Below are positions 16,592-62,985 of a stretch of DNA of 64,000 bases, piece by piece. The stretch comes from Patescibacteria group bacterium (lineage in GTDB: Bacteria > Patescibacteriota > Minisyncoccia > Phycocordibacterales > UBA1550): NCBI GenBank assembly GCA_038063615.1, contig JBBTUT010000003.1:1352-65351 (forward strand). Reading direction: 5' to 3'. Below the pieces are notes generated by a model. That model saw only the letters and a program-made list of their open reading frames with translations. It was not told where the DNA came from and ran no database searches. How positions within the stretch are numbered: the first letter of the stretch is position 1; every line of letters begins with the position of its first letter. A program made the position numbers and the translations under genes.

Positions 16592-16954
16592 ATGAAACAT
16601 CACAAGTCGATTCGAAAATTTGGACGAGACCACGCAGGACGCATTGCGCTCCTCCGCTCCCTCGCGCTTGCGCTCATTACGCGCGAGCACATTCAGACGA
16701 CCGAGGCGCGCGCCAAGGAACTCCGTCCATTCATCGAAAAGCTCGTGACTCATGGTCGCGTAGCCGACCTCGCATCTCGCCGTCTTATCATTTCTCGCTT
16801 GGGCGGTGTGGATGGCGAGAGCGGTGCGAAAAAGATCATCGAAGAGATCGCGCCTCGCTACAAAGAGCGTGCGGGCGGGTACACTCGTGTTTTGAAACTC
16901 CCTCGTCGTCAAGGGGATGCAAGCAAAATGGCAATTATTGAATTTGTGAATTAA
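16592..16954 (+). CDS. rplQ: 50S ribosomal protein L17
   Basis: MKHHKSIRKFGRDHAGRIALLRSLALALITREHIQTTEARAKELRP. Confidence 0.9.
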   Translation: MKHHKSIRKFGRDHAGRIALLRSLALALITREHIQTTEARAKELRPFIEKLVTHGRVADLASRRLIISRLGGVDGESGAKKIIEEIAPRYKERAGGYTRVLKLPRRQGDASKMAIIEFVN

Positions 16955-16956
16955 CA

Positions 16957-17004
16957 GACAACAGACAACAGACAACAGACAACAGACAACAGACAACAGA
17001 TACG
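16957..17004. repeat. (CAGACAA)x7 tandem heptamer followed by GTCGTAAGTCGTAAGTTGTAGGTTGTAAG (about 17020-17050)
   Basis: Direct reading. The two blocks are roughly complementary. Confidence 0.85.
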
Positions 17005-17065
17005 GGTACGAAAGCAGAGCATCCGTCGTAAGTCGTAAGTTGTAGGTTGTAAGTTAAACTAAACC

Positions 17066-18140: not shown

Positions 18141-19202
18141 ATGGACGATAACGCACGAAAATTTGACCACCGAGTAAAAAACCCCGAGCCCCATATCGTG
18201 GCGCTTTTGGCAGCGATAGACGAAGCGCGCGGCGTTTTCCGCGTTGGCGTTCGTATGACCCCGCAGGCAATCAGCACCCTCCGAAGGTCGATACTGGTGA
18301 CATCGGCCGGCGCATCGACTCGTATTGAAGGGTCGAAACTTTCAGATGAGGAGGTAAAGAAGATTATGCAGGGGCTCTCGATCTCAAAGTTTGCCGATCG
18401 TGATTCCCAAGAAGTGCAGGGGTACCTTGAGACGCTCCAAAATGTTTTCGACAGTTTTCAAACATTAGCACTTCGAGAAAGTACCATCCAAGCACTCCAC
18501 AAAGAGCTTCTCAAGTATTCAACCAAAGACGATCTTCATAGAGGCGAGTACAAAAAGAAAGAAAACATCGTTGGTGTCTTCGGCGAAGACGGCAAAGTTG
18601 CACGCATCGTATTTGAAACTACTCTTGCATGGCAAACACCCGCAGAGATGACCGAGCTCGTAGAGTGGACGCACGAGGCACTCGAAAAGAAACGATTTCA
18701 TCCGCTGCTCATTATCGGCAATTTTCTTATAGAATTTCTCAAGATTCATCCATTTGAAGATGGCAACGGGCGCCTCTCTCGCGTACTCACCAATATGCTT
18801 CTTCTTCGATCTGGTTATACATTTGTGCAGTTCGTTTCGCATGAGCAACTTGTCGAGAAGCGCAAGGATGAATACTATCTCGCACTGCGTGAGTCCCAGA
18901 AAACATTTAAAACGGAGAGCGAATCGATCGCGCCGTGGCTCAATTTCTTTTTGTCTATCGTAAAAGAACAAGCAACCAAAGCACTGGCACTTGTGGACAA
19001 GGAGCATGAAGAAGGCTTGTCGCCGAAGCAAAACGAGGTGCTTCAATTCTTTGCGTCGGTACCCGAAGCAAGCCCCGCCGAAATTGCGGCCGCAACTGGT
19101 ATGATTATTGTCACAGTGAGAAAATCGCTCGAACGGCTTCTTGAGCTTGGGAAAGTGAAGCGCATCGGTCGCGGGAGAGGAACGCGGTATGTGAGGATTT
19201 AA
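18141..19202 (+). CDS. Fic/DOC family protein (AMPylase-type) with C-terminal winged-helix
   Basis: Canonical Fic motif HPFEDGNGRLSRVLTNMLL. Confidence 0.85.
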   Translation: MDDNARKFDHRVKNPEPHIVALLAAIDEARGVFRVGVRMTPQAISTLRRSILVTSAGASTRIEGSKLSDEEVKKIMQGLSISKFADRDSQEVQGYLETLQNVFDSFQTLALRESTIQALHKELLKYSTKDDLHRGEYKKKENIVGVFGEDGKVARIVFETTLAWQTPAEMTELVEWTHEALEKKRFHPLLIIGNFLIEFLKIHPFEDGNGRLSRVLTNMLLLRSGYTFVQFVSHEQLVEKRKDEYYLALRESQKTFKTESESIAPWLNFFLSIVKEQATKALALVDKEHEEGLSPKQNEVLQFFASVPEASPAEIAAATGMIIVTVRKSLERLLELGKVKRIGRGRGTRYVRI

Positions 19203-19294
19203 ATTTATGACATCATTTTGGGAATTTAGTATAGGGGATGAATGTGGGAATCCAGTAGTTCATTATTGGTTCAAAAAGTGGTAGGATTACAAAA

Positions 19295-20251
19295 ATGGAA
19301 AAGAAATCTTTAAATAAAAACTTGCACAAGGCAAGCGCTGAAAAGAAAGACGAGTTTTACACTCAACTCGCTGATGTTGAAAAGGAACTCAGGCACTACA
19401 AAGACCAATTTCGTGGTAAGGTGGTATTTTGTAATTGTGATGATCCAAGAGAAAGCAACTTTGTTAAATATTTCAGTACAAATTTTGAACATTTGGGGCT
19501 GAAGAAATTAATCGCAACGCATTACAAAGATGCAAATTTGTTTACAAGGGAGACACCATATAAACTAGTGTACGCTGGCGACAAGAACGGGAATCGCATG
19601 CCTGATACGGATGAGTTTATGACCGAAATGATCGGCACGGGCGATTTCCGTAGCGAGGAATGTATTGAATTACTCAAAGAAGCCGATATAGTAGTAACCA
19701 ACCCACCATTTTCTTTGTTTCGTGAGTATGTCGCACAGCTGATGGAATACAATAAAAAGTTTTTGATTCTTGGCAATCAGAATGCCATTACATACAAGGA
19801 TACATTTAAGCTTATTAAAGAAAACAAATTGTGGCTGGGTTATGACAATGGTGGCACAAAGTGGTTTCAGGTTCCTGTGGGCTATGACATACAAACCGAA
19901 TCGAGAATAAAAGTCGAAAATGGTATTAAGTTTTTCAGCATGGGTAGCATAGTATGGTTTACAAACCTAGACACCACAAAGCGCCATGAAAAATTAGTGC
20001 TTTACAAAAAATACACGCCTGAAGAATACCCTAATTACGATTACCAAGACATTATAGAGGTTTCAAAAGTAGCAGAAATACCATTTGACTACGATGGAAC
20101 GATGGCGGTCCCGAAAACTTTTATTGATAAATATAACCCAAAACAATTTGAGTTGTTGGGTTTTTTGAACGGTGGTGGCAAGGACGAGACAGTACTAAGT
20201 AAACATCCATTCGCGAGAATCTTAATAAGAAATAAGGAAATAAAAAAATAA
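19295..20251 (+). CDS. N6-adenine DNA methyltransferase (gamma-class, NPPF motif IV)
   Basis: DEFYTQ motif-X-like N-terminus. IVVTNPPFSLF catalytic motif. AT-rich (about 36% GC). Confidence 0.6.
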   Translation: MEKKSLNKNLHKASAEKKDEFYTQLADVEKELRHYKDQFRGKVVFCNCDDPRESNFVKYFSTNFEHLGLKKLIATHYKDANLFTRETPYKLVYAGDKNGNRMPDTDEFMTEMIGTGDFRSEECIELLKEADIVVTNPPFSLFREYVAQLMEYNKKFLILGNQNAITYKDTFKLIKENKLWLGYDNGGTKWFQVPVGYDIQTESRIKVENGIKFFSMGSIVWFTNLDTTKRHEKLVLYKKYTPEEYPNYDYQDIIEVSKVAEIPFDYDGTMAVPKTFIDKYNPKQFELLGFLNGGGKDETVLSKHPFARILIRNKEIKK

Positions 20252-20252
20252 C

Positions 20253-21344
20253 ATGAAAATTGAACTTCATCGAATTTCTGTGCGCGAAGTTATTGTCGGC
20301 TACAAGGATAGTGCTGAAGAGGGCGTTGTAGCTTATGGTGGCAAACTCGATATTCGCCCAAAATATCAACGCGAATTTGTTTATAACGGCAAACAGCGCG
20401 ACGCTGTTATTGAGACAATTAAAAATGGTTTTCCGCTCAATGTGATGTATTGGGTTAAAACCGATGAGGGCAATTACGAAGTTTTAGACGGACAGCAACG
20501 CACTATTAGCATAGGACAATATATAAATGGTGATTTCTCATTAAATAATTTCAATTTTCATAACTTGACGGATGAAGAGCAAAAACAAATTTTGGATTAT
20601 GAATTGATGATTTATTTCTGCGAGGGTAATGATAGGGAAAAATTGAACTGGTTCAAAATCATCAACATTGCTGGAGAGAAACTGACCGAACAAGAATTGC
20701 GCAATGCGGTATATACTGGCCCATGGCTTTCTGACGCAAAGCTTAAATTCAGTAAATCAAGCTGCGCGGCGTACCTTTTAGCACACGACGGCGGGCAGTT
20801 AGTGAGTGGATCTCCCATCCGTCAAGAATATTTGGAGACCGCGCTTTCGTGGATCAATGATGGCAAAATAGAAGATTACATGGCAAAGCATCAGCATGAC
20901 ACGAACGCCGATGAATTGTGGAACTATTTCCAAAATGTAATTGCATGGGTGCGAGCGACTTTTACGAATTACCGCCGAGAAATGAACAGTGTAAAGTGGG
21001 GCGAGCTGTACAACAAATTCAAAGACAAGAAACTGAATGCTGGCAAACTGGAAACCGAGATCAATGAGTTGATGCAAGACGAGGATGTGACGAAAAAATC
21101 CGGCATTTATCCGTATGTTTTGACGAGGCAGGAAAAATATCTTTCAATTCGCGCTTTTACCGAGAAGCAAAAGAGGGAAGTATACGAAAAACAAAAAGGC
21201 ATCTGCGTAAAATGCAAGAAACATTTTGGAATAGAAGAAATGGAAGCAGACCATATAACACCTTGGCATGAGGGAGGAAAAACAAATGCCAAAAATTGCC
21301 AAATGTTGTGTAAACAAGACAATCGCACCAAATCTGGAAAATAA
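20253..21344 (+). CDS. DUF262 (ParB/GmrSD-N-like, DGQQR motif) plus C-terminal HNH nuclease domain protein
   Basis: YEVLDGQQRTISI (DUF262). C-terminal CVKCKKH...ADHITPWHEGGKTNAKNCQMLCKQDN (HNH). Starts 2 nt after the methyltransferase stop. Confidence 0.75.
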   Translation: MKIELHRISVREVIVGYKDSAEEGVVAYGGKLDIRPKYQREFVYNGKQRDAVIETIKNGFPLNVMYWVKTDEGNYEVLDGQQRTISIGQYINGDFSLNNFNFHNLTDEEQKQILDYELMIYFCEGNDREKLNWFKIINIAGEKLTEQELRNAVYTGPWLSDAKLKFSKSSCAAYLLAHDGGQLVSGSPIRQEYLETALSWINDGKIEDYMAKHQHDTNADELWNYFQNVIAWVRATFTNYRREMNSVKWGELYNKFKDKKLNAGKLETEINELMQDEDVTKKSGIYPYVLTRQEKYLSIRAFTEKQKREVYEKQKGICVKCKKHFGIEEMEADHITPWHEGGKTNAKNCQMLCKQDNRTKSGK

Positions 21345-21390
21345 TATGACGAGTAGTCTTTTTGCAAAGGTAGAATATGAATTTTTGTCA

Positions 21391-21412
21391 TACTGGGTCA
21401 GGTACCCTTTCC
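21391..21412. repeat. REP-like element tactgggtcaggtaccctttcc
   Basis: Same GGTCAGGTACCCTTTCC core as the hairpins flanking the IS200-like transposase at 35024-35098. Confidence 0.6.
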
Positions 21413-21470
21413 TAAAATTGAATCCAAAAACTAAAATTAAAAATTTTGATGAGGCGGGGGCTGTGGTAGA

Positions 21471-22016
21471 ATGAAATGCATGAAGAATAACAGTGGTAAA
21501 ATTTCAAAGGAGAAGATTTTACCAAACATTGTTTTGAGGTATTATCATTCGCCACAGAAACGGAGTGATAATAAATTATCGGGAATTACTTGCGCCTTCT
21601 GTCTTGAAAAAAACATAATAAATATCGGCGGTGGTTTCCATGACAAAAAGGGTAAACCCCATCAGATTTGCGAAAAATGCGCGGTATGGCGATATCGAGA
21701 TGATAACGGGTTCCGTACTCTGTCCGCAGCAAAAGCGCGCCGCCGTAGAATATTTGATGTTGGGTATATATTTAACGAAATGGTGATTGATAGGTATATA
21801 AGCATAAAGGGTGTTAAAAATTACGATGCCTTACCCACTGGGGTTGCGGATGTGATTTTTATAGATGCTGCTAATCTTTACAACTATCTTTTTAGTAAGG
21901 AGGATAAAATTAGAATCGAAGAAATTGAGAGGCAGGATGAGATTGCGGACGAATTGCGAAAGAGGATTGAAATTATTGATTTCAAAAAATATTTTACCGA
22001 AAAAGGACTTTTGTGA
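21471..22016 (+). CDS. Hypothetical Cys4 zinc-ribbon protein
   Basis: CAFC...CEKC zinc-ribbon-like motifs. Preceded by TGTGGTAGAATGAAATG (-10-like TAGAAT abutting the ATG); first residues MKCM shared with ORF 24356. Confidence 0.45.
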   Translation: MKCMKNNSGKISKEKILPNIVLRYYHSPQKRSDNKLSGITCAFCLEKNIINIGGGFHDKKGKPHQICEKCAVWRYRDDNGFRTLSAAKARRRRIFDVGYIFNEMVIDRYISIKGVKNYDALPTGVADVIFIDAANLYNYLFSKEDKIRIEEIERQDEIADELRKRIEIIDFKKYFTEKGLL

Positions 22017-22063
22017 TGTAACTTGGTTTGACGATATGGCGTGGTACATGGTAGTATTGTTGC

Positions 22064-22192
22064 ATGAAACAGCAATTTACTGCAGTATATAAAAAGAGTG
22101 GAAAATGGTATCTTGGGTGGGTTGAGGAAATTTCCGGCGTGAATACACAAGGTCGTACACTTGCTGAAGCGCGCGAAAATCTTAATGAATAG
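22064..22192 (+). CDS. HicB-like (UPF0150) antitoxin-family small protein, possibly C-terminally truncated
   Basis: MKQQFTAVYKKSGKWYLGWVEEISGVNTQGRTLAEARENLNE fits the UPF0150/HicB consensus (...pGcvtqGetleEAlenl.ea). 42 aa, below the ORF-track cutoff. Stop immediately followed by a REP-like element. Confidence 0.5.
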   Translation: MKQQFTAVYKKSGKWYLGWVEEISGVNTQGRTLAEARENLNE

Positions 22193-22222
22193 GTGTCAGG
22201 TACCTTTGACTTGAATTTGAGC
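22191..22222. repeat. REP-like element aggtgtcaggtacctttgacttgaatttgagc
   Basis: Related to 24249-24290 and to the RAYT-flanking hairpins. Confidence 0.55.
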
Positions 22223-22253
22223 AGAATCTTCCCCGGCATGTTATAGTTGCTGT

Positions 22254-22517
22254 ATGGTAACTTTTACCAAACACGCGAAAGATAAGTTTGGAATTCTGAA
22301 AAAACATAAATTTTCAGTATCTGAGGAGCAGGTTTTGGCGACTGTTGCGATGCCTGACCTGATTGATCATTCTCGAATTCCGCTCTTGGTAGCTCAACGA
22401 AAAATTGACAGGAACCTTGTATTGAGGGTAGTATATAAGCAAGAAAGAGGAACCGTAAAGATAATCACATTTTATCCGGGGAAATCTAAACAATATAAAA
22501 ATGAAAACAAAAGATAA
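22254..22517 (+). CDS. DUF4258-like small protein (putative toxin component)
   Basis: FTKHAKDKF...SEEQV...RVVY...IITFYP pattern resembles DUF4258. Overlaps the next gene by 17 nt. Confidence 0.4.
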   Translation: MVTFTKHAKDKFGILKKHKFSVSEEQVLATVAMPDLIDHSRIPLLVAQRKIDRNLVLRVVYKQERGTVKIITFYPGKSKQYKNENKR

Positions 22518-22743
22518 AGCAAAAATTTCATACGAGCCGGAATCCGATGTTTTAATGTGGGAAATATCTGGCAGTTCTATCGATTATGCTAAAGAAATTG
22601 GCAATTTTGTAGTGCATTTTACAAAAAACAATGTACCCGTTTTGATCGAGATATTGGAGGCGAGTAAATTTTTGGCAAAGACAAAAAATGTCGTAGAGAA
22701 AGGGAGCAGTGTTTTTATAAAAAGACACGCTTTGGCGGTGTAG
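22501..22743 (+). CDS. DUF2283-like small protein (putative antitoxin partner of DUF4258)
   Basis: ISYEPESDVLMWEISGSSIDYAKEIGNFVVHFTKNNVPVLIEILEAS matches the DUF2283 consensus. Confidence 0.45.
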   Translation: MKTKDKAKISYEPESDVLMWEISGSSIDYAKEIGNFVVHFTKNNVPVLIEILEASKFLAKTKNVVEKGSSVFIKRHALAV

Positions 22744-22889
22744 ATTTTGCATAATTGGGACAGTCACGATTGTTTCGTAAATTATGTGGTGTAGTTTGGG
22801 TGCAAACTCAATGCAGGTTACTTTTGTAGCATTATAGTAGTCAATTTACTCAAGAGAGGTGGCGTTTTGTAAATCTCAAAGACGCAGGA

Positions 22890-24182
22890 TTAGCATAATT
22901 GCTCATACAGCTCGAGTTCCTCGCGCGGGTCGCTCCACTCGACTTCGTTGATATCAAATCGTGTTACATCAGAAAGCTCTTTGCGTACGGCATCATCCAC
23001 TTCATCAGGACCGTACCCCGCTTGCTCTGCCGTCCACCAGAGAGTCTCCTCATGTTCAGGATGTTTCTTGTCTTTGAGAATGTCCATTTTTTCATAGTAC
23101 CCAAAAAGTGCGCCGGAATCTTCGTATGGGCAACGATTCTTGCCTGCGAGAATATCCGGTACTTTCATACCATCAGTGCGTGGAAGTATTTTTTCAAGTG
23201 TGATCCTATGCCCCCAACCGTCTCCGAAGTCATACATATACCATACCGCGTCTTTTTCTTTTTTCAGAAAATCTGATATCCCCGTATTCCTTTCGTCGAG
23301 CGACGCCTTGTCAGAAAAAATTTCATCGTCCGGATGCGGAATCTTGATGCTTGTTGCGTCTCTGCTGGTATATGGCGAGCAATCAAAAAATTCATGCAAG
23401 TGATACCCGAACCACCCCATCGCGTCTTGAATGGCAACATGCAAATCAAAGAAAGAATATTCCTCAGGTACAATAATCCTGCGCCAAATGAGTGGCTTTG
23501 AGCCGGAAAGCTCTATTTTGAGTCGCAGAATATTATTGCCGGTAATATGCTTGGCGGGTTTTGCGTGCGCGACATCCGTTTGAGGAGCCATACTTTTTCT
23601 TCTTTGCTCCAATTGTTCTTCCACATGCCGCATTGTTTCTTCTGTCGCGAAAGCTTGCGCGAGTTTAGTCGCATCGCCACCTTCACCTTTTCTTATTAAC
23701 TCACACATCGCGCACCCACCACATCCTTCAAATTCGGAAGTAACGGAAAAATGGGGGGACCCCGATAACCACTCTTCGGCAATTTGACCCGCTTCGTCCG
23801 CGAGATATTGATGCCAGCCATGAACCCAGCCGTCAGTGTTTTCTTTCAGGTGTCTCTCCATGGCGCGCCAATTCCCTGAACTAAGCGCCTTCACTGCTCC
23901 GCGCGCTTCATCTCCAGATGCCATGACTGACAGAATATCAGCGATAAAGTCGCGCGCAATCTGGTCGCGATATTCGTCATTGAGATGCTCGACGAGAAAA
24001 TATTGTTTTGAGTTTCCAATTTTTATCACCCAGTCGTGTAAACCTTTTACTGAGGAAACCGCAACCAGTGTGCCAGTCTTTATGTCCAAGTATTGCTGCG
24101 GGTAATCCTCGGTGGCAAGAATCGCATCTACGACTGCCTCAATATCCACTCGAACTCGGTTGGGGAGATACCATGCGTCCAT
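22890..24182 (-). CDS. pRiA4b ORF-3-like domain protein (N-terminal UPF0158-like region)
   Basis: ILRLKIELSGSKPLIWRRIIVP ... FFDLHVAIQDAMGW ... YMYDFGDGWGHRITLE matches the PRiA4_ORF3 family pattern. Confidence 0.5.
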   Translation of the reverse strand: MDAWYLPNRVRVDIEAVVDAILATEDYPQQYLDIKTGTLVAVSSVKGLHDWVIKIGNSKQYFLVEHLNDEYRDQIARDFIADILSVMASGDEARGAVKALSSGNWRAMERHLKENTDGWVHGWHQYLADEAGQIAEEWLSGSPHFSVTSEFEGCGGCAMCELIRKGEGGDATKLAQAFATEETMRHVEEQLEQRRKSMAPQTDVAHAKPAKHITGNNILRLKIELSGSKPLIWRRIIVPEEYSFFDLHVAIQDAMGWFGYHLHEFFDCSPYTSRDATSIKIPHPDDEIFSDKASLDERNTGISDFLKKEKDAVWYMYDFGDGWGHRITLEKILPRTDGMKVPDILAGKNRCPYEDSGALFGYYEKMDILKDKKHPEHEETLWWTAEQAGYGPDEVDDAVRKELSDVTRFDINEVEWSDPREELELYEQLC

Positions 24183-35023: not shown

Positions 35024-35798
35024 GGGAAAGGGGGTCAGGTACCCTTTCCCTTTACTTCTGGGGAAAGGGGGTCAGGTACCCTTTCCCTTTACTTCTGATA
35101 TACTAACCATATGCCTCGCATCACTCGTACCGACATCGGCAATCATTGCTATCATGTCATAAACCGTGCCAACGCGCGTATGCCGATTTTCTTCGCAGAA
35201 AAGGACTATGTTTTGTTTGAGCAAGTCCTAGAGGAAGCGCAAGAAAAGTTCTCTATGAGAATCCTCGCATACTGCCTCATGCCAAACCATTTTCACCTTG
35301 TGTTGTATCCAAAAAATGATGGTGACATGGGAAAATTCATGCAATGGCTCACGCTCACCCATACCCAGCGCTGGCATCAGGCGAACAATACGAAAGGAAG
35401 TGGGCATCTCTACCAAGGAAGGTACAAATCTTTTTTGATACAGGGCGACAACCATCTTCTCTCTGTTATTCGTTATGTCGAGCGAAACTCGCTTCGCGCA
35501 AAACTTGTTAGAAAAGCAGAGAACTGGGGTTTTTGTAGTTTAGCACGACGACTATCAATCAACACAAGAAAAAAGAAACTCTTGTCAGCATGGCCGATAC
35601 CGGAGCCAAGAGATTATCTCTCATTTGTTAGCACCCCGCAAACAAAAGAAGAGGAAGAAAGCATCAGAGGATCTGTCGTAAGAGGGAAGCCGTTTGGTGC
35701 AGATGCATGGGCTACAAAAATGATCGAGAAGTTTGGACTTGAAGCTACCGTGCGCTCGACAGGGAGACCCAAAAAGGGTACCTGACCCCCTTTTTCTC
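35024..35798 (+). mobile_element. IS200/IS605-like (RAYT-like) element: two tandem 38-nt left hairpins, a Y1 transposase gene, and an inverted right hairpin
   Basis: Left: gggaaagggggtcaggtaccctttccctttacttctg twice (35024-35098). Right: aaaaagggtacctgaccccctttttctc (35771-35798), inverted. Transposase stop TGA lies inside the right hairpin. Confidence 0.7.
35111..35785 (+). CDS. IS200-like / REP-associated tyrosine transposase (Y1 HUH)
   Basis: HUH motif in CLMPNHFHLVLYP. Transposase_17-like N-terminus (YHVINRANARMPIF). Confidence 0.7.
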   Translation: MPRITRTDIGNHCYHVINRANARMPIFFAEKDYVLFEQVLEEAQEKFSMRILAYCLMPNHFHLVLYPKNDGDMGKFMQWLTLTHTQRWHQANNTKGSGHLYQGRYKSFLIQGDNHLLSVIRYVERNSLRAKLVRKAENWGFCSLARRLSINTRKKKLLSAWPIPEPRDYLSFVSTPQTKEEEESIRGSVVRGKPFGADAWATKMIEKFGLEATVRSTGRPKKGT

Positions 35799-58348: not shown

Positions 58349-59686
58349 ATGGAACGCACATACATAAAAGATTTAAAGGAGCACATAGGTACGGAAGTTG
58401 TTGTCGCTGGCTGGGTGGATATTCGCCGCGACCACGGCAAGCTCATTTTTCTCGACCTCCGCGATATGTCCGGCAAGGTGCAGATGGTAGCGCTCCCGAA
58501 CCATCCCGAGGCTGTAGCTCTCGCCAGCACGGTGCGTTCCGAATGGGTCATCGAGGTGCGCGGCATGGTGAATGCGCGCCCGCCGAAGATGGTGAAAGAG
58601 GGTGTGTTGAATGGCGAGCTTGAGATCGAGATGCTTGAGGTCAAAGTGCTTTGCAAAGCGCAGGAGCTTCCTTTTGAGCTCGGCACAGAACTTAATCTCG
58701 ATACCTATCTCGACAATCTTCCGCTAACGCTTCGCGAAGAAAAAGCGCATGCGGTGTTCAAGGTGCAGGCAATGATTATTCACGCATTCCGTAATTTTCT
58801 CGTTGGCGAGGGCTTCACCGAGTTTCAAGCACCGAAGCTCATTGGTGAGGATGCCGAGGGCGGCGCAAACTCGTTTAATGTGGAATATTTTGGTCATACC
58901 GCGCACCTTGCGCAGAGTCCACAGCTCTACAAACAAATAATGGTCGGCGTGTTTGAGCGCGTGTTTACGACGGGCAATGTATACCGCGCAGAAAAGCACA
59001 GCACAACGCGACATATCAATGAATACACGAGCCTCGACATAGAGATGGGATTCATCAAAGACCATACTGATGTGATGAATATGGAAAATCGAATTCTTGC
59101 CTATATCGTGAAAGAGCTCAAAGAAAAATGCTCTGATGAATTTGCACTTTTTGGTGCCACAATACCCGAAGTGCCGGAGAAAATTCCCGCAATGAAACTC
59201 CGTGAAGCGCAGGAAATCATCAAGAAAGAAACAGGGGAGGACTGCACAAAAGAGCTCGACCTCGAGCCGGCACACGAGCGCTTCCTTTGCGAATATGCGA
59301 AGAAAGAATTCAATTCAGATTTTATTTTTATCACGCATTTCCCAATTTCAAAGCGACCATTCTATACTTATGAGGATGAAAATGACATTGGCTATGCAAA
59401 GGGCGGAGACCTGCTTTTCCGCGGTGTTGAGATCACTACGCTCGCACAACGCATCCACGACTACGACACTCTCGTCGCGTCGATGAAGACAAAAGGCCTC
59501 GACCCTGAAAAATTCCGCTTCTACCTGCAAGCCTTCAAGTATGGTATGCCTCCGCATGGCGGCTTTGGTCTCGGCCTCGAGCGCCTCACCGCAAAGCTCC
59601 TCGGCCTCGAAAATGTGAAAGAAGCGACTTTGTTCCCCCGCGACCTGAATCGGATTGATACCTTGTTGTCGACTAAATTGGGATAA
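58349..59686 (+). CDS. aspS: Aspartyl-tRNA synthetase, archaeal/eukaryotic type (probably non-discriminating)
   Basis: EYFGHTAHLAQSPQLYKQ, YRAEKHSTTRHINEY, FRFYLQAFKYGMPPHGGFGLGLERL, LFPRD match archaeal-type AspRS. ORF-track start at 58268 reads through the repeat block. Confidence 0.8.
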   Translation: MERTYIKDLKEHIGTEVVVAGWVDIRRDHGKLIFLDLRDMSGKVQMVALPNHPEAVALASTVRSEWVIEVRGMVNARPPKMVKEGVLNGELEIEMLEVKVLCKAQELPFELGTELNLDTYLDNLPLTLREEKAHAVFKVQAMIIHAFRNFLVGEGFTEFQAPKLIGEDAEGGANSFNVEYFGHTAHLAQSPQLYKQIMVGVFERVFTTGNVYRAEKHSTTRHINEYTSLDIEMGFIKDHTDVMNMENRILAYIVKELKEKCSDEFALFGATIPEVPEKIPAMKLREAQEIIKKETGEDCTKELDLEPAHERFLCEYAKKEFNSDFIFITHFPISKRPFYTYEDENDIGYAKGGDLLFRGVEITTLAQRIHDYDTLVASMKTKGLDPEKFRFYLQAFKYGMPPHGGFGLGLERLTAKLLGLENVKEATLFPRDLNRIDTLLSTKLG

Positions 59687-59708
59687 AGTACCTAACCATG
59701 TTGGTATT

Positions 59709-60254
59709 ATGTTAAACAAAATTAATAAAAACCAAGGAATCCCAGCTCTTTTTGCACTGATCTTGTCTGGCGCAACTTTCTTTTTCTCCGATCAAAAATG
59801 GTGGGTTCTAGTTATTATTATGATAACTATTTTGCTTATGGTCAGTATTCATTTGTATGAAAAAAGGAAGCCAAAAAATTTCAAAGACACACAAAAAGCA
59901 TCTAGAATTCTCTTTGTTGATGACAAGGAGTGTCAAATTGTAACAAATCTACGGCGGAATAATTTTGATGTTAGAAAAATCGATGACATTTTATCACCGG
60001 CGACGGACATTGATGTGCAGTGGGCGAATATAATTTTTGTTGATTATAAAGATGTTGGTAAAAAACTTTGTGGCAAAAAAGAAGGGCTTGGGCTCATCAG
60101 TGAATTGAAGCGTGTTTATGGAGACAAAAAACGCTATATTATTTATTCATCAGTGCAGGATTTTGACGGGCTGGTCGAATTTCCTTATATTAGGAAAAAT
60201 GCCTCTTATGATGAGTTTATTTCATTAATTACCGCAGAAATAACCAAATTATGA
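59709..60254 (+). CDS. Hypothetical membrane protein with REC-like cytoplasmic domain
   Basis: Two TM helices, then ILFVDDKECQIV... resembling a receiver-domain start. Confidence 0.3.
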   Translation: MLNKINKNQGIPALFALILSGATFFFSDQKWWVLVIIMITILLMVSIHLYEKRKPKNFKDTQKASRILFVDDKECQIVTNLRRNNFDVRKIDDILSPATDIDVQWANIIFVDYKDVGKKLCGKKEGLGLISELKRVYGDKKRYIIYSSVQDFDGLVEFPYIRKNASYDEFISLITAEITKL

Positions 60255-61252
60255 TTTGCTTGAAGGTTACAGTTCCAACCAGCGGTGTGGTAGTGAATTC
60301 ATTTCCAGATGACTTTACTGTGCCAAAACAAGAAAGTCAAAAGAACAAAAAGTCTCGTTATTTTCGTAAAAATACCTCATTCGGTATTTTGGAATTTTTG
60401 TTGATTGAAGAGGAGAGAGTCGCTAATAGCAATAAGGTCTTCAATGCTTTTGTCGTTGCAATCGAAACGGCGTTAGAAAAATCTATCTCCCATAATTTAG
60501 AAAAAGCTCGGGAGATGGCAGATGATTACCTCCATAATATAATAAAGATCCACGGGAATCAGAAAAGTATAGTAGAACGATGTGTCTTTGGGGCGGAAGG
60601 ACAGGAAAGTTATACCGATTTTGTTTCAGTGGTTAAAGAAAATGTGCAAAGAAACCCTGATATGTTCGCTGAAGATATTTGCGCTCTTTCGAAGGAGATA
60701 AGATTGGTAGATTACCACATCGGTGGCTACAATCTCCTTCGTGACGCATCTTCAAGAGTTACGATTACAGATAACCATAACCTCAAGAAGTTTTTACTCG
60801 GACTTTCTCATTTGTTTTTCGAGTTTTTTAGAAAGAACAATGTGGTGGTGAGTCTTCATGATATTAGCGAAAGTTTTCTTTGCTCCTTTGAATATGAGAC
60901 ATTTAATATTGCAATGCATAGCTTTCTTGAAAACACGGTTAAGTACTCAAAACCCTATTCTAGAATAATAGTTTATACACGGACTGAGTCAGGTGAGTTA
61001 ATATTTCAAATGGAAAGTGTTCGCATTGAGAAAGATGAAATTATTAAGATCTTTGAAAGAGGGGTTTTTGGTCGCTGTGTGCCGGAAGATTTGAGAGGAA
61101 GTGGTATTGGTATGTATCAATTAAAAAAAGCTTTGGATAGGAGTAGGATATCAGTTACTGTTTCTCCGGATCATTCCCAAAGCTCGGAAGTGAACGGAGT
61201 TAGATATACAAAAAATACTTTTTCTTTTCGTTTTCCAAAATACTCGAACTAA
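60251..61252 (+). CDS. Histidine-kinase-like ATPase domain protein (non-canonical)
   Basis: C-terminal HATPase_c-like region (LENTVKYSKP...GSGIGMYQLK). Confidence 0.4.
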   Translation: MICLKVTVPTSGVVVNSFPDDFTVPKQESQKNKKSRYFRKNTSFGILEFLLIEEERVANSNKVFNAFVVAIETALEKSISHNLEKAREMADDYLHNIIKIHGNQKSIVERCVFGAEGQESYTDFVSVVKENVQRNPDMFAEDICALSKEIRLVDYHIGGYNLLRDASSRVTITDNHNLKKFLLGLSHLFFEFFRKNNVVVSLHDISESFLCSFEYETFNIAMHSFLENTVKYSKPYSRIIVYTRTESGELIFQMESVRIEKDEIIKIFERGVFGRCVPEDLRGSGIGMYQLKKALDRSRISVTVSPDHSQSSEVNGVRYTKNTFSFRFPKYSN

Positions 61253-61323
61253 GTGCTATTTTATAAGTACTGTTGGTATGTTTTGTATTAAAAAACGATT
61301 GGCGGTATACTGAGCTTGTTAAT

Positions 61324-62985
61324 ATGTCCAAATTAAAAGATACCCCCATTGTTGATAGACCCCGAGAAAAATTCTTGGAAAAGGGTGCCGACGCGCTTAC
61401 CAAGAGCGAGCTTTTGGCCATTCTTCTCGGAAGTGGTATCAAGGGAACGAATGTCAAAAAACTTTCCGAGCAAATTCTCAGAAAATTCGGGAAAAAGTTT
61501 TTTGATGTGACGGTTGACGATCTTTGCCAGGTTAACGGAATAGGGCAGGCGAAAGCTTTGCAAATAGTTTCCGCGATTTCTCTGACAAAAAGAATTTATG
61601 AGGAACAAAAACCTCAAGAAAATCTGGTGCTTTCCGCAAACGATGCCGCTTTGCTTGTTTCCGATTTAAAAAATAAAAAACAGGAGCATCTCGTTTGTTT
61701 GTATTTAAACGCTCGGAATGTTTTGCTTCAAAAAGAAACTGTTTCAATCGGAACGCTCGACAGAAGCATCGTGCATCCGAGAGAAATTTTTGCTCCCGGA
61801 TTGAAATTGCACGCAGCGGGGGTAATTTTGATTCACAACCATCCGTCCGGCGATCCGACTCCAAGCAATCAAGACAAAGAGATTGCTTGGAAAGTCGTGG
61901 AAGCTGGGAAATTGATGGGCGTTAATGTTATTGATTTTATTATTGTTGCGGAAAACGGCATTCACAGTGTTTTGGGTGAAATAAAGAAAAAAAAGGATTT
62001 TTCAAGTGTCGAGTATGTCGCGGACGGCGAGCAAGCGTCTTTGTTCGACATGTTGGTGGATGAAAGATCTTTTATGAGCTACAAAGTGTCAGCACTGCAA
62101 AAAGCGACGAGCAAAAATGACAAAATAAAAGTTATAGATCTGTTCGCGGGGATAGGGGGCTTTCATTTGGCATTTCACAATGCTGGGGCGGAGTGCGTGT
62201 TTGCTTCCGAGTGGGATACTCCGGCGCGTAAAACTTACCAGCATAATCTTTACAACATATCCCCGGAACTTTTTGACTCGGGAAGTTTTGTCGGCGATAT
62301 TACAAAAGTCAATCCAAAAGATATACCCGATTTCAATATTTTATGCGCAGGGTTCCCGTGCCAGCCGTTTTCGCAAGCGGGTTTTAAAAAGGGGTTCAAC
62401 GAAACAAAAGGGACGCTTTTCTTTGATATCGTAAACATAATCAACGAGAAAAAACCCCAAGCGTTTTTCTTAGAAAATGTTCGGCATTTGTTTAAGCACG
62501 ATAACGGTCGCACATTTGAAACAATAAAAAAAATTATTGAAGAAGATTTGGGGTATTCTTTTTTCTATAAAATAATTAAGGCTTCCGACTATGGATTACC
62601 GCAACACAGGCCACGCCTTTTTATGGTTGGGTTCAAAGATAAAAGTATAGATTTTAAGTTTCCGGATCCAGTACCGTTGAAATATACGCTTTCGGATGTT
62701 TTTGGTGGAAAATGCGAAAAAGATGTCGGCTTTACTCTCCGCGTAGGTGGTCGTGGCAGTAGAATTGAGGATAGGCACAACTGGGATGCGTATATTGTTG
62801 ACGGAAAGGCCAGAAGGCTCGGTTCGAAAGAGGGAATAAAGATGCAAGGATTTCCCAACGATTTCGAGTTCCCTGTTACAGAGGTTCAAGCTATGAAGCA
62901 ACTGGGAAATTCTGTTGCGGTTCCCGCCATACAAATGGTGGCGGAGGAAATCGTCAAACAACTTAAAAAACATGGAAAACAATAA
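61324..62985 (+). CDS. RadC-like JAB/MPN domain fused to DNA (cytosine-5)-methyltransferase
   Basis: N-terminus has HhH and JAMM motif (HNHPSGDPTPSNQD). C-terminus has C5-MTase motifs I (DLFAGIGGF), IV (GFPCQPFS), ENV and QLGNSVAVP. One continuous ORF. Confidence 0.7.
   Translation: MSKLKDTPIVDRPREKFLEKGADALTKSELLAILLGSGIKGTNVKKLSEQILRKFGKKFFDVTVDDLCQVNGIGQAKALQIVSAISLTKRIYEEQKPQENLVLSANDAALLVSDLKNKKQEHLVCLYLNARNVLLQKETVSIGTLDRSIVHPREIFAPGLKLHAAGVILIHNHPSGDPTPSNQDKEIAWKVVEAGKLMGVNVIDFIIVAENGIHSVLGEIKKKKDFSSVEYVADGEQASLFDMLVDERSFMSYKVSALQKATSKNDKIKVIDLFAGIGGFHLAFHNAGAECVFASEWDTPARKTYQHNLYNISPELFDSGSFVGDITKVNPKDIPDFNILCAGFPCQPFSQAGFKKGFNETKGTLFFDIVNIINEKKPQAFFLENVRHLFKHDNGRTFETIKKIIEEDLGYSFFYKIIKASDYGLPQHRPRLFMVGFKDKSIDFKFPDPVPLKYTLSDVFGGKCEKDVGFTLRVGGRGSRIEDRHNWDAYIVDGKARRLGSKEGIKMQGFPNDFEFPVTEVQAMKQLGNSVAVPAIQMVAEEIVKQLKKHGKQ

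Follow-up and report, generated by a model that had tools for sequence, protein, structure and literature searches.

Gene content and setting of the locus

The window analysed here, a stretch of 64,000 nucleotides from a Patescibacteria genome of roughly 50% GC, contains two adjacent open reading frames on the plus strand, confirmed at 19295-20251 (318 aa) and 20253-21344 (363 aa). The first encodes an N6-adenine DNA methyltransferase of the M.EcoRI family (the methylase, M) and the second a nuclease (R) that combines a DUF262 domain with an HNH domain and is presumed to be a restriction endonuclease. Both genes occupy an accessory island located, by the ORF map, between the rpsD-rpoA-rplQ-rplM-rpsI block and grpE-dnaK; in a composition scan of the window, GC content falls to 0.38-0.42 over 19000-23000, compared with about 0.46-0.55 on either side. 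The features of the locus are as follows:

19000-23000, no strand: AT-rich accessory island with the cassette (GC content and ORF map; context only)
19282-19286, plus strand: candidate ribosome-binding site TAGGA, 8 nt 5' of the methylase ATG (from reading of the sequence)
19295-20251, plus strand: gene for the M.EcoRI-family N6-adenine DNA methyltransferase, 318 aa (PF13651, PADLOC MTase_II PDLC03297, identity to M.EcoRI)
19700-19711, plus strand: catalytic motif IV, NPPF, methylase residues 136-139 (sequence)
20234-20255, plus strand: junction, with AAGGAA, TAA (20249-20251), c (20252) and ATG (20253-20255) (sequence)
20253-21344, plus strand: gene for the DUF262-HNH nuclease, 363 aa, presumed restriction endonuclease (PADLOC REase_II PDLC03418, Pfam GmrSD_N and HNH, AF2 model)
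20352-20714, plus strand: DUF262 / ParB-Srx-like domain, nuclease residues 34-154 (PF03235 GmrSD_N, E 6.4e-17)
21204-21335, plus strand: HNH nuclease domain, nuclease residues 318-361 (PF01844, E 3.7e-11)

The first-pass annotation described a tightly coupled operon of an adenine methyltransferase and a DUF262-HNH nuclease, and the two plus-strand frames with their TAA-c-ATG junction bear this out. Its statement that stop and start are 2 nt apart is right as a difference of coordinates, but just one base, 20252, intervenes. Separate, adjacent M and R genes on one strand with a 1-nt spacer conform to the Type II gene arrangement. AAGGAA, within the 3' end of the methylase gene, is a possible ribosome-binding site for the nuclease gene; no terminator-like site was seen between the two genes, and scans for promoters and terminators returned background level only.

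Of the surroundings described in the same annotation, the AT-rich block and the upstream Fic gene both stand, the latter (18141-19202) matching PF02661 and PADLOC SoFic (1.3e-43). The downstream toxin-antitoxin genes were recovered in part: an 80-aa DUF2283 protein (22501-22743) is present, but the 87-aa ORF that overlaps it by 17 nt has no family match. Nor was a family match found for the 181-aa ORF that lies between the cassette and these two genes. Apart from one weak Fic match, the flanking genes have no counterparts beside the pair at the 80 related loci described below.

The methylase

Residues 9-294 of the methylase match positions 1-304 of 345 in the PF13651 EcoRI_methylase profile (E 4.7e-124; 414.6 bits against a cutoff of 26.4), and residues 2-315 of 318 match the PADLOC MTase_II model ("Type II methyltransferase", PDLC03297; E 1.1e-115). 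The genuine M.EcoRI, encoded beside R.EcoRI on an E. coli plasmid, is 50.8% identical over 327 aligned columns (E 2e-90); full-length similarity to both the profile and M.EcoRI places the protein in this family. NPPF fits motif IV of AdoMet-dependent amino-methyltransferases, (D/N/S)PP(Y/F), as expected of a Type II methylase, and the block in which it lies (residues 136-150) is the best conserved of the methylase family, with 0.91 identity among 69 homologues. Hence the motif-IV assignment, on which the earlier identification as a DNA methyltransferase had been made to depend, is solid, as is membership of the M.EcoRI family (PF13651). The core of these methylases is well conserved, and their divergence is concentrated in three surrounding segments, loop-like and rich in indels. 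M.EcoRI itself falls among the methylases linked to DUF262-HNH nucleases in an unrooted NJ tree.

The nuclease

The PADLOC REase_II model ("Type II restriction enzyme", PDLC03418) aligns with the nuclease from end to end (residues 1-363 against profile positions 1-372 of 372; E 3.4e-137), while NsnA and PD-T4-2_A are weak PADLOC matches. The N-terminal domain carries the QR (39-40), DGQQR (79-83; nt 20487-20501) and FxxxN (134-138) motifs, as defined for DUF262 proteins in PMC12137116, and all three are 0.96-1.00 conserved across 116 cluster representatives with a mean identity to the query of 45%. In the C-terminal domain are Cys318, Cys321, Cys349 and Cys353, Asp333-His334, Asn348 and Asn357; conservation in the same representatives reaches 0.97 for both His334 and Asn348. 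By motif content the active site is intact, as a Type II endonuclease would require. The C-terminus also matches PF14279, and no match to DUF1524 (PF07510) was found at E<=0.01 in the Pfam profile search. The GmrSD/SspE-type architecture proposed previously thus holds for DUF262 with its DGQQR motif, but the expected DUF1524 is replaced by a classical Cys4 HNH domain.

An AF2 model of the nuclease has a mean pLDDT of 82.7, with 84-95 in the HNH region. The HNH domain resembles PDB 4H9D, the Gme HNH nicking endonuclease (phmmer E 1.1e-3, Foldseek E 4.6e-3), and Foldseek also related the model to the N-domains of ParB, Noc, KorB and sulfiredoxin, at E values between about 1e-2 and 3e-1. A phmmer search of the PDB gave no significant match among Type II HNH enzymes of solved structure. 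Neither the literature nor the PGAP and UniRef names yielded the REBASE enzyme on which model PDLC03418 is based, the names being just 'DUF262 domain-containing protein' or 'HNH endonuclease', and in the searchable literature we found no biochemical or genetic data for any family member.

Conservation and spread of the pair

Conservation of the pair was assessed in 80 genomic loci, picked by similarity of the nuclease (homologues of 78-87% identity). An EcoRI-family methylase lies upstream on the same strand in 78; in the two exceptions the nuclease is within 1 kb of a contig end, and hence all 78 testable loci are paired. In most of the 80, the last position of the methylase ORF and the first of the nuclease ORF differ by 2 (for example, 9999 and 10001). 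Among nucleases of 39-63% identity the order M then R is retained too, on plasmids from Enterococcus, Lactobacillales, Staphylococcaceae, Actinomycetota, Proteobacteria and Bacteroidota, and in Flavobacterium phage laban6-1. Co-conservation in other genomes, the second point on which the first-pass annotation had staked its proposal, is thus seen in every testable locus, on plasmids and in one phage.

The cassette is mobile and has spread horizontally. Nucleases 71-99% identical occur in hosts assigned to different phyla and in unrelated contexts, and the pair is frequent on small plasmids, some of which carry resistance genes; in pK205-4b-C, optrA is located between M and R. In other loci, genes of defence type (RhuM, AbiEii-like AAA_21, Bro-N, T5orf172) are inserted at this position, and gene insertions of such kind are known from bona fide immune loci. 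One protein of 688 aa is a fusion of EcoRI_methylase, GmrSD_N and HNH. In two loci the methylase appears broken, by an in-frame stop (L058) or a frameshift (L039), with the nuclease ORF intact in both; these could be assembly errors, or the nuclease may not always be lethal without its partner.

Among the related loci mean pairwise identity is 81.5% for the nuclease against 60.9% for the methylase (r = 0.16), from which one might conclude that the specificities of the two proteins are decoupled, but we set this aside since the loci were chosen by nuclease similarity. Decoupling is further disfavoured by the confinement of methylase divergence to loop-like segments, with the core kept, and by the roughly equal divergence of both proteins at greater distances.

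Recognition site and word counts

The 51% identity of the methylase to M.EcoRI, together with the nesting of M.EcoRI within this group of methylases, suggests a target of GAATTC type; GAATTC or a related site is, in our estimation, a guess and more likely wrong than right. The EcoRI-like-family methylase M.MpnI modifies CTAT, so that the recognition site is not fixed by family membership. Avoidance of words was evaluated for 4-, 5- and 6-mers through maximum-order Markov observed/expected ratios, in the window and in the 80 loci pooled, and no consistently depleted word emerged that could indicate the site. GAATTC occurs 25 times in the window against 21.8 expected, showing no depletion, and the pooled ratios over the 80 loci are 0.83 for GAATTC and 1.00 for AATT.

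As a separate observation, the word ACGT is entirely missing from the window (0 observed against 113 expected). No link between this absence and the methylase-nuclease pair was found: the loci with the closest methylases are near-normal (36 observed against 41 expected in L071, 78% identical; 44 against 55 in L020, 75%), many other loci with the pair are normal (53 against 58 in L012; 95 against 84 in L068), and pair-bearing plasmids and phage show no ACGT depletion. Loss through m5C deamination was also rejected, ATGT/ACAT not being enriched (1.04). The absence of ACGT is a more surprising feature of the window than the cassette and merits a study of its own.

Interpretation of the cassette

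The pair is probably a mobile, two-gene restriction-modification cassette of Type II style, protected by methylation and of a known kind. This reading is supported by the end-to-end PADLOC Type II models, the Pfam domains, the linkage in 78 of 80 loci, the 1-nt junction and the unchanged gene order on distant plasmids and in the phage; by the unconserved flanks, the M-R fusion protein and the near-invariant catalytic and pocket residues; and by the identity to M.EcoRI, its position in the tree and the defence-type insertions between M and R elsewhere. With both proteins matched throughout by Type II models, the unconventional restriction-modification-like or modification-sensing system that was first proposed is not supported, nor is the pair an unrecognised one.

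In the mechanism we envisage, the methylase would mark a particular short sequence of the host chromosome and the nuclease, its gene presumably coupled in translation to that of the methylase through the 1-nt spacer, would cleave DNA without the mark at a zinc-stabilised HNH (beta-beta-alpha-metal) active site. That methylation protects and that the nuclease cuts unmethylated DNA we regard as likely. The ParB/Srx-like DUF262 domain, with its intact nucleotide pocket, probably binds or hydrolyses NTP and might thereby license the HNH domain: such gating is suggested by the invariant QR/DGQQR/FxxxN pocket and by analogy with GmrSD, BrxU and SspE, and we place it somewhat short of an even chance. 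Orthodox Type II enzymes do not, to our knowledge, feature an NTP-binding domain, which counts against the Type II-style reading, and the conserved pocket raises doubt, at the level of sequence, about operation with 'Mg2+ only'.

A possible, albeit doubtful, extension is that DUF262-HNH enzymes form a mechanistically distinct restriction subclass, Type II by gene content yet equipped with a ParB-like NTP switch, possibly for CTP or GTP, that would either license cleavage or make the enzyme move along DNA. If true, this large family, which is abundant in Patescibacteria, would represent a compact counterpart of GmrSD, BrxU and SspE that is blocked by methylation. It is a further possibility that the nuclease system is a non-homologous isoschizomer of EcoRI.

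Sensing of the self mark in the manner of SspE is improbable: DUF262 would read the host's own m6A and modulate an NTPase controlling an HNH nickase on unmarked invading DNA, rather than a simple site-specific double-strand cutter. SspE provides a precedent: there, the modification that the host itself makes stimulates the DUF262 NTPase, which in turn drives the nuclease domain (PMC10952713). Furthermore, nothing in the nuclease family is better conserved than the QR, DGQQR and FxxxN motifs, and 4H9D, the closest HNH relative of solved structure, is a nickase. However, DUF1524 is absent, SspE and BrxU are about twice as large as this protein and PADLOC labels it a Type II REase, while the outcome would be the same as for the methylation-protected cassette, the mechanism alone differing.

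We think it equally unlikely that the pair is mainly a selfish cassette for addiction or mobility, with phage defence minor, in which post-segregational killing upon methylase loss stabilises plasmids and islands. The high nuclease identity across hosts of different phyla and unrelated contexts, and the presence on small plasmids, some with resistance genes (including optrA inside the pair), and in a phage, speak for such an element, but a defence role is compatible with it, classical Type II systems doing both; here the cassette adjoins the defence-type SoFic, and elsewhere it hosts embedded defence genes. A GmrSD-like, modification-dependent (Type IV) nuclease merely beside an unrelated or orphan methylase is highly improbable: the Pfam family of the N-terminal domain is named for GmrSD and weak matches exist to NsnA and PD-T4-2_A (PADLOC) and BrxU (Foldseek E 0.065), but the methylase linkage is obligatory in all 78 testable loci, with the 1-nt junction conserved, pairing persists at 39% identity in distant phyla and phage, an M-R fusion exists, DUF1524 is lacking and an m6A-dependent cutter beside an m6A methylase would destroy its own host.

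As a restriction-modification system the cassette is ordinary, one of thousands caught by standard defence-system annotation, because the family is large, comprising at least 507 clusters, already catalogued and horizontally spread. Its discovery value is little, and its modest worth is as a pointer to a widespread nuclease family with a near-invariant ParB-type pocket. Patescibacteria are largely without CRISPR, and the cassette illustrates their acquisition of defence through horizontal transfer.

Comparison with known systems

Among HNH Type II enzymes, KpnI, Hpy99I, PacI, NlaIII, SphI, MnlI and HphI share the beta-beta-alpha-metal domain and a methylase partner, and Cys4 zinc sites are frequent among enzymes of this type (PMC2441816; PMC4081073). 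In contrast to the nuclease here, no HNH subfamily in these two papers is described with a ParB/DUF262 nucleotide-binding domain; 'ParB' is absent from the 2008 classification (PMC2441816). That classification gives the fold of R.CviAII as unknown, and we found no support for R.CviAII or NlaIII-type CATG systems as relatives.

The ParB, Noc and KorB CTP-binding N-domains and sulfiredoxin share the fold of residues about 30-160 of the nuclease model (Foldseek), but these proteins serve in partition or regulation or, for sulfiredoxin, in redox catalysis, and have neither a nuclease domain nor a methylase partner. GmrSD, BrxU and SspE, which are Type IV or phosphorothioate-sensing effectors, correspond in layout: a ParB/Srx-like DUF262 domain bearing QR, DGQQR and FxxxN stands at the N-terminus, then come helices, then a C-terminal His-Me-finger nuclease. 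The DUF262 motifs are present here, but neither the DUF1524 C-terminus of those proteins, in place of which stands the classical Cys4 HNH (PF01844), nor a stand-alone effector without cognate methylase, the nuclease being methylase-paired in all testable loci; its 363 aa compare with the 580 residues of the BrxU chain in the PDB, and the structural match to BrxU is weak (Foldseek E 0.065, TM 0.23).

The EcoRI system is likewise a two-gene cassette on small mobile plasmids, and its methylase is a full-length homologue that shares the Pfam family, NPPF as motif IV and an N-terminal DEFYTQ block. In EcoRI, however, R precedes M, whereas M precedes R here, and R.EcoRI is annotated as an EcoRI-family endonuclease, to which the DUF262-HNH nuclease is unrelated. 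R.EcoRI-family genes adjoin M.EcoRI homologues on plasmids of E. coli and Klebsiella but not at this locus, where the nuclease matches GmrSD_N and HNH models only, and which is therefore not an EcoRI system in the strict sense.

Gene layout and genomic setting

The two genes of the pair occupy exactly the coordinates at which the first-pass annotation had placed them, both on the plus strand in the ORF map of the window:

19295-20251, plus strand: ORF1, methylase, 318 aa
20253-21344, plus strand: ORF2, DUF262-HNH nuclease, 363 aa

The ORF1 stop codon (TAA, 20249-20251) is separated from the ORF2 ATG at 20253 by a single base, which agrees with the spacing of 2 nt by coordinates claimed earlier, and a putative ribosome-binding site (AAGGAA) that could serve ORF2 lies 13 nt upstream of its start. 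The surrounding block was rightly described as AT-rich: GC content is 0.38-0.42 across 19000-23000 against ~0.46-0.55 on both sides, the block being situated between a ribosomal-protein/rpoA cluster and grpE-dnaK. A Fic protein is indeed encoded upstream (PF02661; PADLOC SoFic, 1.3e-43), but the toxin-antitoxin genes reported downstream are only half identified. There, a 181-aa ORF is followed by an 87-aa ORF overlapping an 80-aa DUF2283 protein, and next by a PRiA4_ORF3 protein on the minus strand; neither the 181-aa nor the 87-aa ORF matched any family, and the 87-aa ORF and its DUF2283 partner are toxin-antitoxin-like. The ORF2 protein is identical to an annotated protein of a Patescibacteria MAG, and in its 3' part (from 50251) the window matches contigs of Hainich groundwater well H41.

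Elsewhere in the window, two heptanucleotide tandem repeats occupy the short stretch that separates the genes for ribosomal proteins L17 and L13: a perfect one, (AACAGAC) x 6.9, at 16953-17000 and an imperfect one, (GTCGTAA) x 4.3, at 17025-17054. Positions 35111-35785 encode an IS200-like Y1 transposase (PF01797, E 6e-17).

The methylase belongs to the EcoRI family

ORF1 matches Pfam EcoRI_methylase (E 4.7e-124) and, over almost its full length, the PADLOC 'Type II methyltransferase' model PDLC03297 (E 1.1e-115). Its NPPF motif, at residues 136-139, falls within the best-conserved block of the family, and the motif IV assignment made previously is upheld. Identity to M.EcoRI, here the product of an E. 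coli plasmid gene adjoining a 'type-2 restriction enzyme EcoRI', is 50.8% end to end. ORF1 is thus as near to M.EcoRI (51%) as to many methylases that accompany other DUF262-HNH nucleases (37-60%), among which M.EcoRI is itself placed in a midpoint-rooted NJ tree; hence, a GAATTC-like recognition site would be a reasonable guess for the pair. Against this guess counts M.MpnI, a member of the same Pfam family that methylates CTAT (PMC3536716). Word-avoidance analysis of the window and 80 related loci gave no signal for a recognition site.

The nuclease combines DUF262 and HNH domains

Of the architecture first proposed for ORF2, DUF262 with an HNH/DUF1524-type C-terminus, the DUF262 (GmrSD_N, residues 34-154, E 6.4e-17) and HNH (PF01844, residues 318-361, E 3.7e-11) domains are found by Pfam search, which returned no match to DUF1524. 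The PADLOC 'Type II restriction enzyme' model PDLC03418 covers ORF2 residues 1-363 with profile positions 1-372 of 372 (3.4e-137). Solved structures include no close relative, the Gme HNH nicking endonuclease (PDB 4H9D) matching the HNH part only. An AlphaFold model built from 52 homologues (mean pLDDT 82.7) has an alpha/beta domain at the N-terminus, then a helical region and finally a beta-beta-alpha unit at the C-terminus; Foldseek related the N-terminal part to ParB, Noc, KorB and sulfiredoxin folds and the C-terminal part to HNH domains, with a weak match to BrxU (E 0.065).

Residue conservation was assessed in 116 full-length representatives (mean identity 45%).

Fraction conserved among 116 nuclease representatives
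Gln39-Arg40: 1.00
DGQQR: 0.97-1.00
Phe134: 0.96
Asn138: 1.00
His334: 0.97
Asn348: 0.97
Three of four Cys: 0.91-0.97

Both domains are therefore strongly constrained, and conservation is highest of all in the nucleotide pocket. A 50%-identity cluster library contains 507 family representatives at E<=1e-30, most of them 360-410 aa long; one, the 688-aa P0215, unites the C-terminal part of EcoRI_methylase with GmrSD_N and HNH, and this single case could be either a natural fusion of the two genes or an artefact of a frameshifted junction.

The pair is a conserved, mobile cassette

Scanning one genome per species yielded 167 loci with a nuclease relative, of which the best 80 (78-87% identity) were analysed; these are mostly from Patescibacteria, together with bins labelled Omnitrophota, Gammaproteobacteria, Elusimicrobiota and Flavobacteriaceae. 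In 78 of these 80 the nuclease is preceded on the same strand by an EcoRI-family methylase, bearing out the expectation of co-conservation; that of the remaining two (L041, L060) begins <1 kb from a contig end. Methylase end and nuclease start are 2 nt apart in most of the 80, as in the window. The genes that flank the pair in the window do not accompany it in these loci, a single weak Fic match excepted, and therefore the conserved unit is the two-gene cassette. The same order persists at 39-63% nuclease identity on plasmids of Enterococcus, Lactobacillales, Macrococcoides/Mammaliicoccus, Gordonia, Variovorax, Sulfitobacter, Aeromonas and Chryseobacterium, and in Flavobacterium phage laban6-1.

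Around 17 of the 80 loci carry one to three further genes between methylase and nuclease, among them genes for RhuM, AAA_21/AbiEii-like ATPase, Bro-N, DUF2130 and T5orf172/GIY-YIG-like proteins (L014, L018, L025, L027, L028, L031, L040, L044, L047, L049, L050, L056, L061, L062, L063, L078, L079). Embedded accessory or defence genes seem to use the cassette as a landing pad. On Enterococcus dispar plasmid pK205-4b-C (L001, 61-4699), the two genes of a homologous cassette, EcoRI-family methylase and DUF262-HNH, are separated by optrA, an oxazolidinone/phenicol resistance gene.

Two methylases appear to be inactivated, judging by their reading frames, beside intact nuclease ORFs: in that of L058 (8968-9972) an in-frame stop takes the place of a conserved Trp codon, and that of L039 (8928-9996) has its N-terminal and C-terminal parts in separate frames. 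Either errors of assembly or decay of the systems would account for this. Across the 80 loci (L004-L083), mean pairwise identity is 81.5% for the nuclease versus 60.9% for the methylase (r = 0.16), and in 98% of pairs it is the nuclease that is better conserved. R-M systems usually show the reverse; the difference here is partly a selection effect. Methylase divergence is focused at residues 76-120, 196-215 and 286-300.

Proposed mode of action

The simplest and most likely account of the pair is that of a restriction system with protection by methylation, in which the methylase would place a mark on host DNA and the HNH nuclease would cut DNA lacking it, while the methylase-first order and 1-nt junction would tie translation of the nuclease to that of the methylase. 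Domain content and linkage are established by the searches above; the direction of discrimination, against unmethylated DNA, we infer from the labels of the PADLOC families and because the methylase partner is obligatory. A modification-dependent (Type IV) nuclease is unlikely, since it would set an m6A-sensitive killer beside an m6A methylase and leaves the invariant methylase linkage unexplained. In GmrSD-type enzymes, the QR, DGQQR and FxxxN motifs of DUF262 bind and hydrolyse NTP (PMC4619093, PMC10952713, PMC12137116); ORF2 retains all three, and an NTP-controlled step is therefore plausible by analogy.

Word depletion, a second R-M system and candidate defence genes

ACGT is absent from the 64-kb window, where 113 copies are expected under a maximum-order Markov model and 244 from base composition. 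It is also missing from the 7 kb that follow the window, with 0 observed against 33 expected in the overlapping 21-kb locus L089. Deamination of m5C is an unlikely cause because ATGT/ACAT is not enriched (1.04), and the loss looks like the result of selection; ACGG and ACGA are enriched. No ACGT-specific system was found in the window; the loss might reflect a restriction enzyme, its sites having been purged from the genome, not methylated. The absence is not common to the closest relatives of the cassette, and relatives of the pair mostly have normal counts, although a few other Patescibacteria loci are nearly ACGT-free (observed/expected: L004 1/18, L014 0/9, L058 2/32, L031 3/23). Other words strongly depleted in the window are CCAGG/CCTGG (7 observed, 55 expected), GGCC (56, 131) and GCAGC/GCTGC (28, 74), and GGGCCC, AGGGCC and CCAGGG do not occur. 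The uncultured plasmid pRGI00069 (L002, 7.7 kb examined), which has a homologous cassette, contains zero TGCA, GCGC, GTAC, GGCC, CTAG and ACGT, with 13-32 of each expected.

A second Type II R-M system lies at the 3' end of the window and continues in L089 (12722-14233), a Vsr mismatch endonuclease just past the window end belonging to it. Directly upstream of this HpaII-type system are two overlapping ORFs, without a Pfam family, that match a PADLOC candidate defence system:

59655-60254: PDC-M43A match, E 9.5e-19
60251-61252: PDC-M43B match, E 5.3e-39
61273-62985: UPF0758_N, RadC-like JAB and C5-cytosine methylase fusion, single ORF, 570 aa
62915-64000+: HpaII-family endonuclease, cut by the window end

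Comparison with known systems

A literature search for a characterised DUF262-HNH restriction enzyme found no paper. The pair falls outside the GmrSD/SspE family, to which its architecture had been likened, because it lacks DUF1524 and has a methylase partner. Nor is it an EcoRI system: its methylase is homologous to M.EcoRI, but its nuclease is unrelated to R.EcoRI. Comparative-genomic surveys have noted fusions of ParB/DUF262 domains to HNH that are linked to R-M systems (PMC3632139), and dedicated PADLOC Type II models recognise both proteins; hence, the pair is not the unconventional system once supposed, and is a further example of a type already catalogued.
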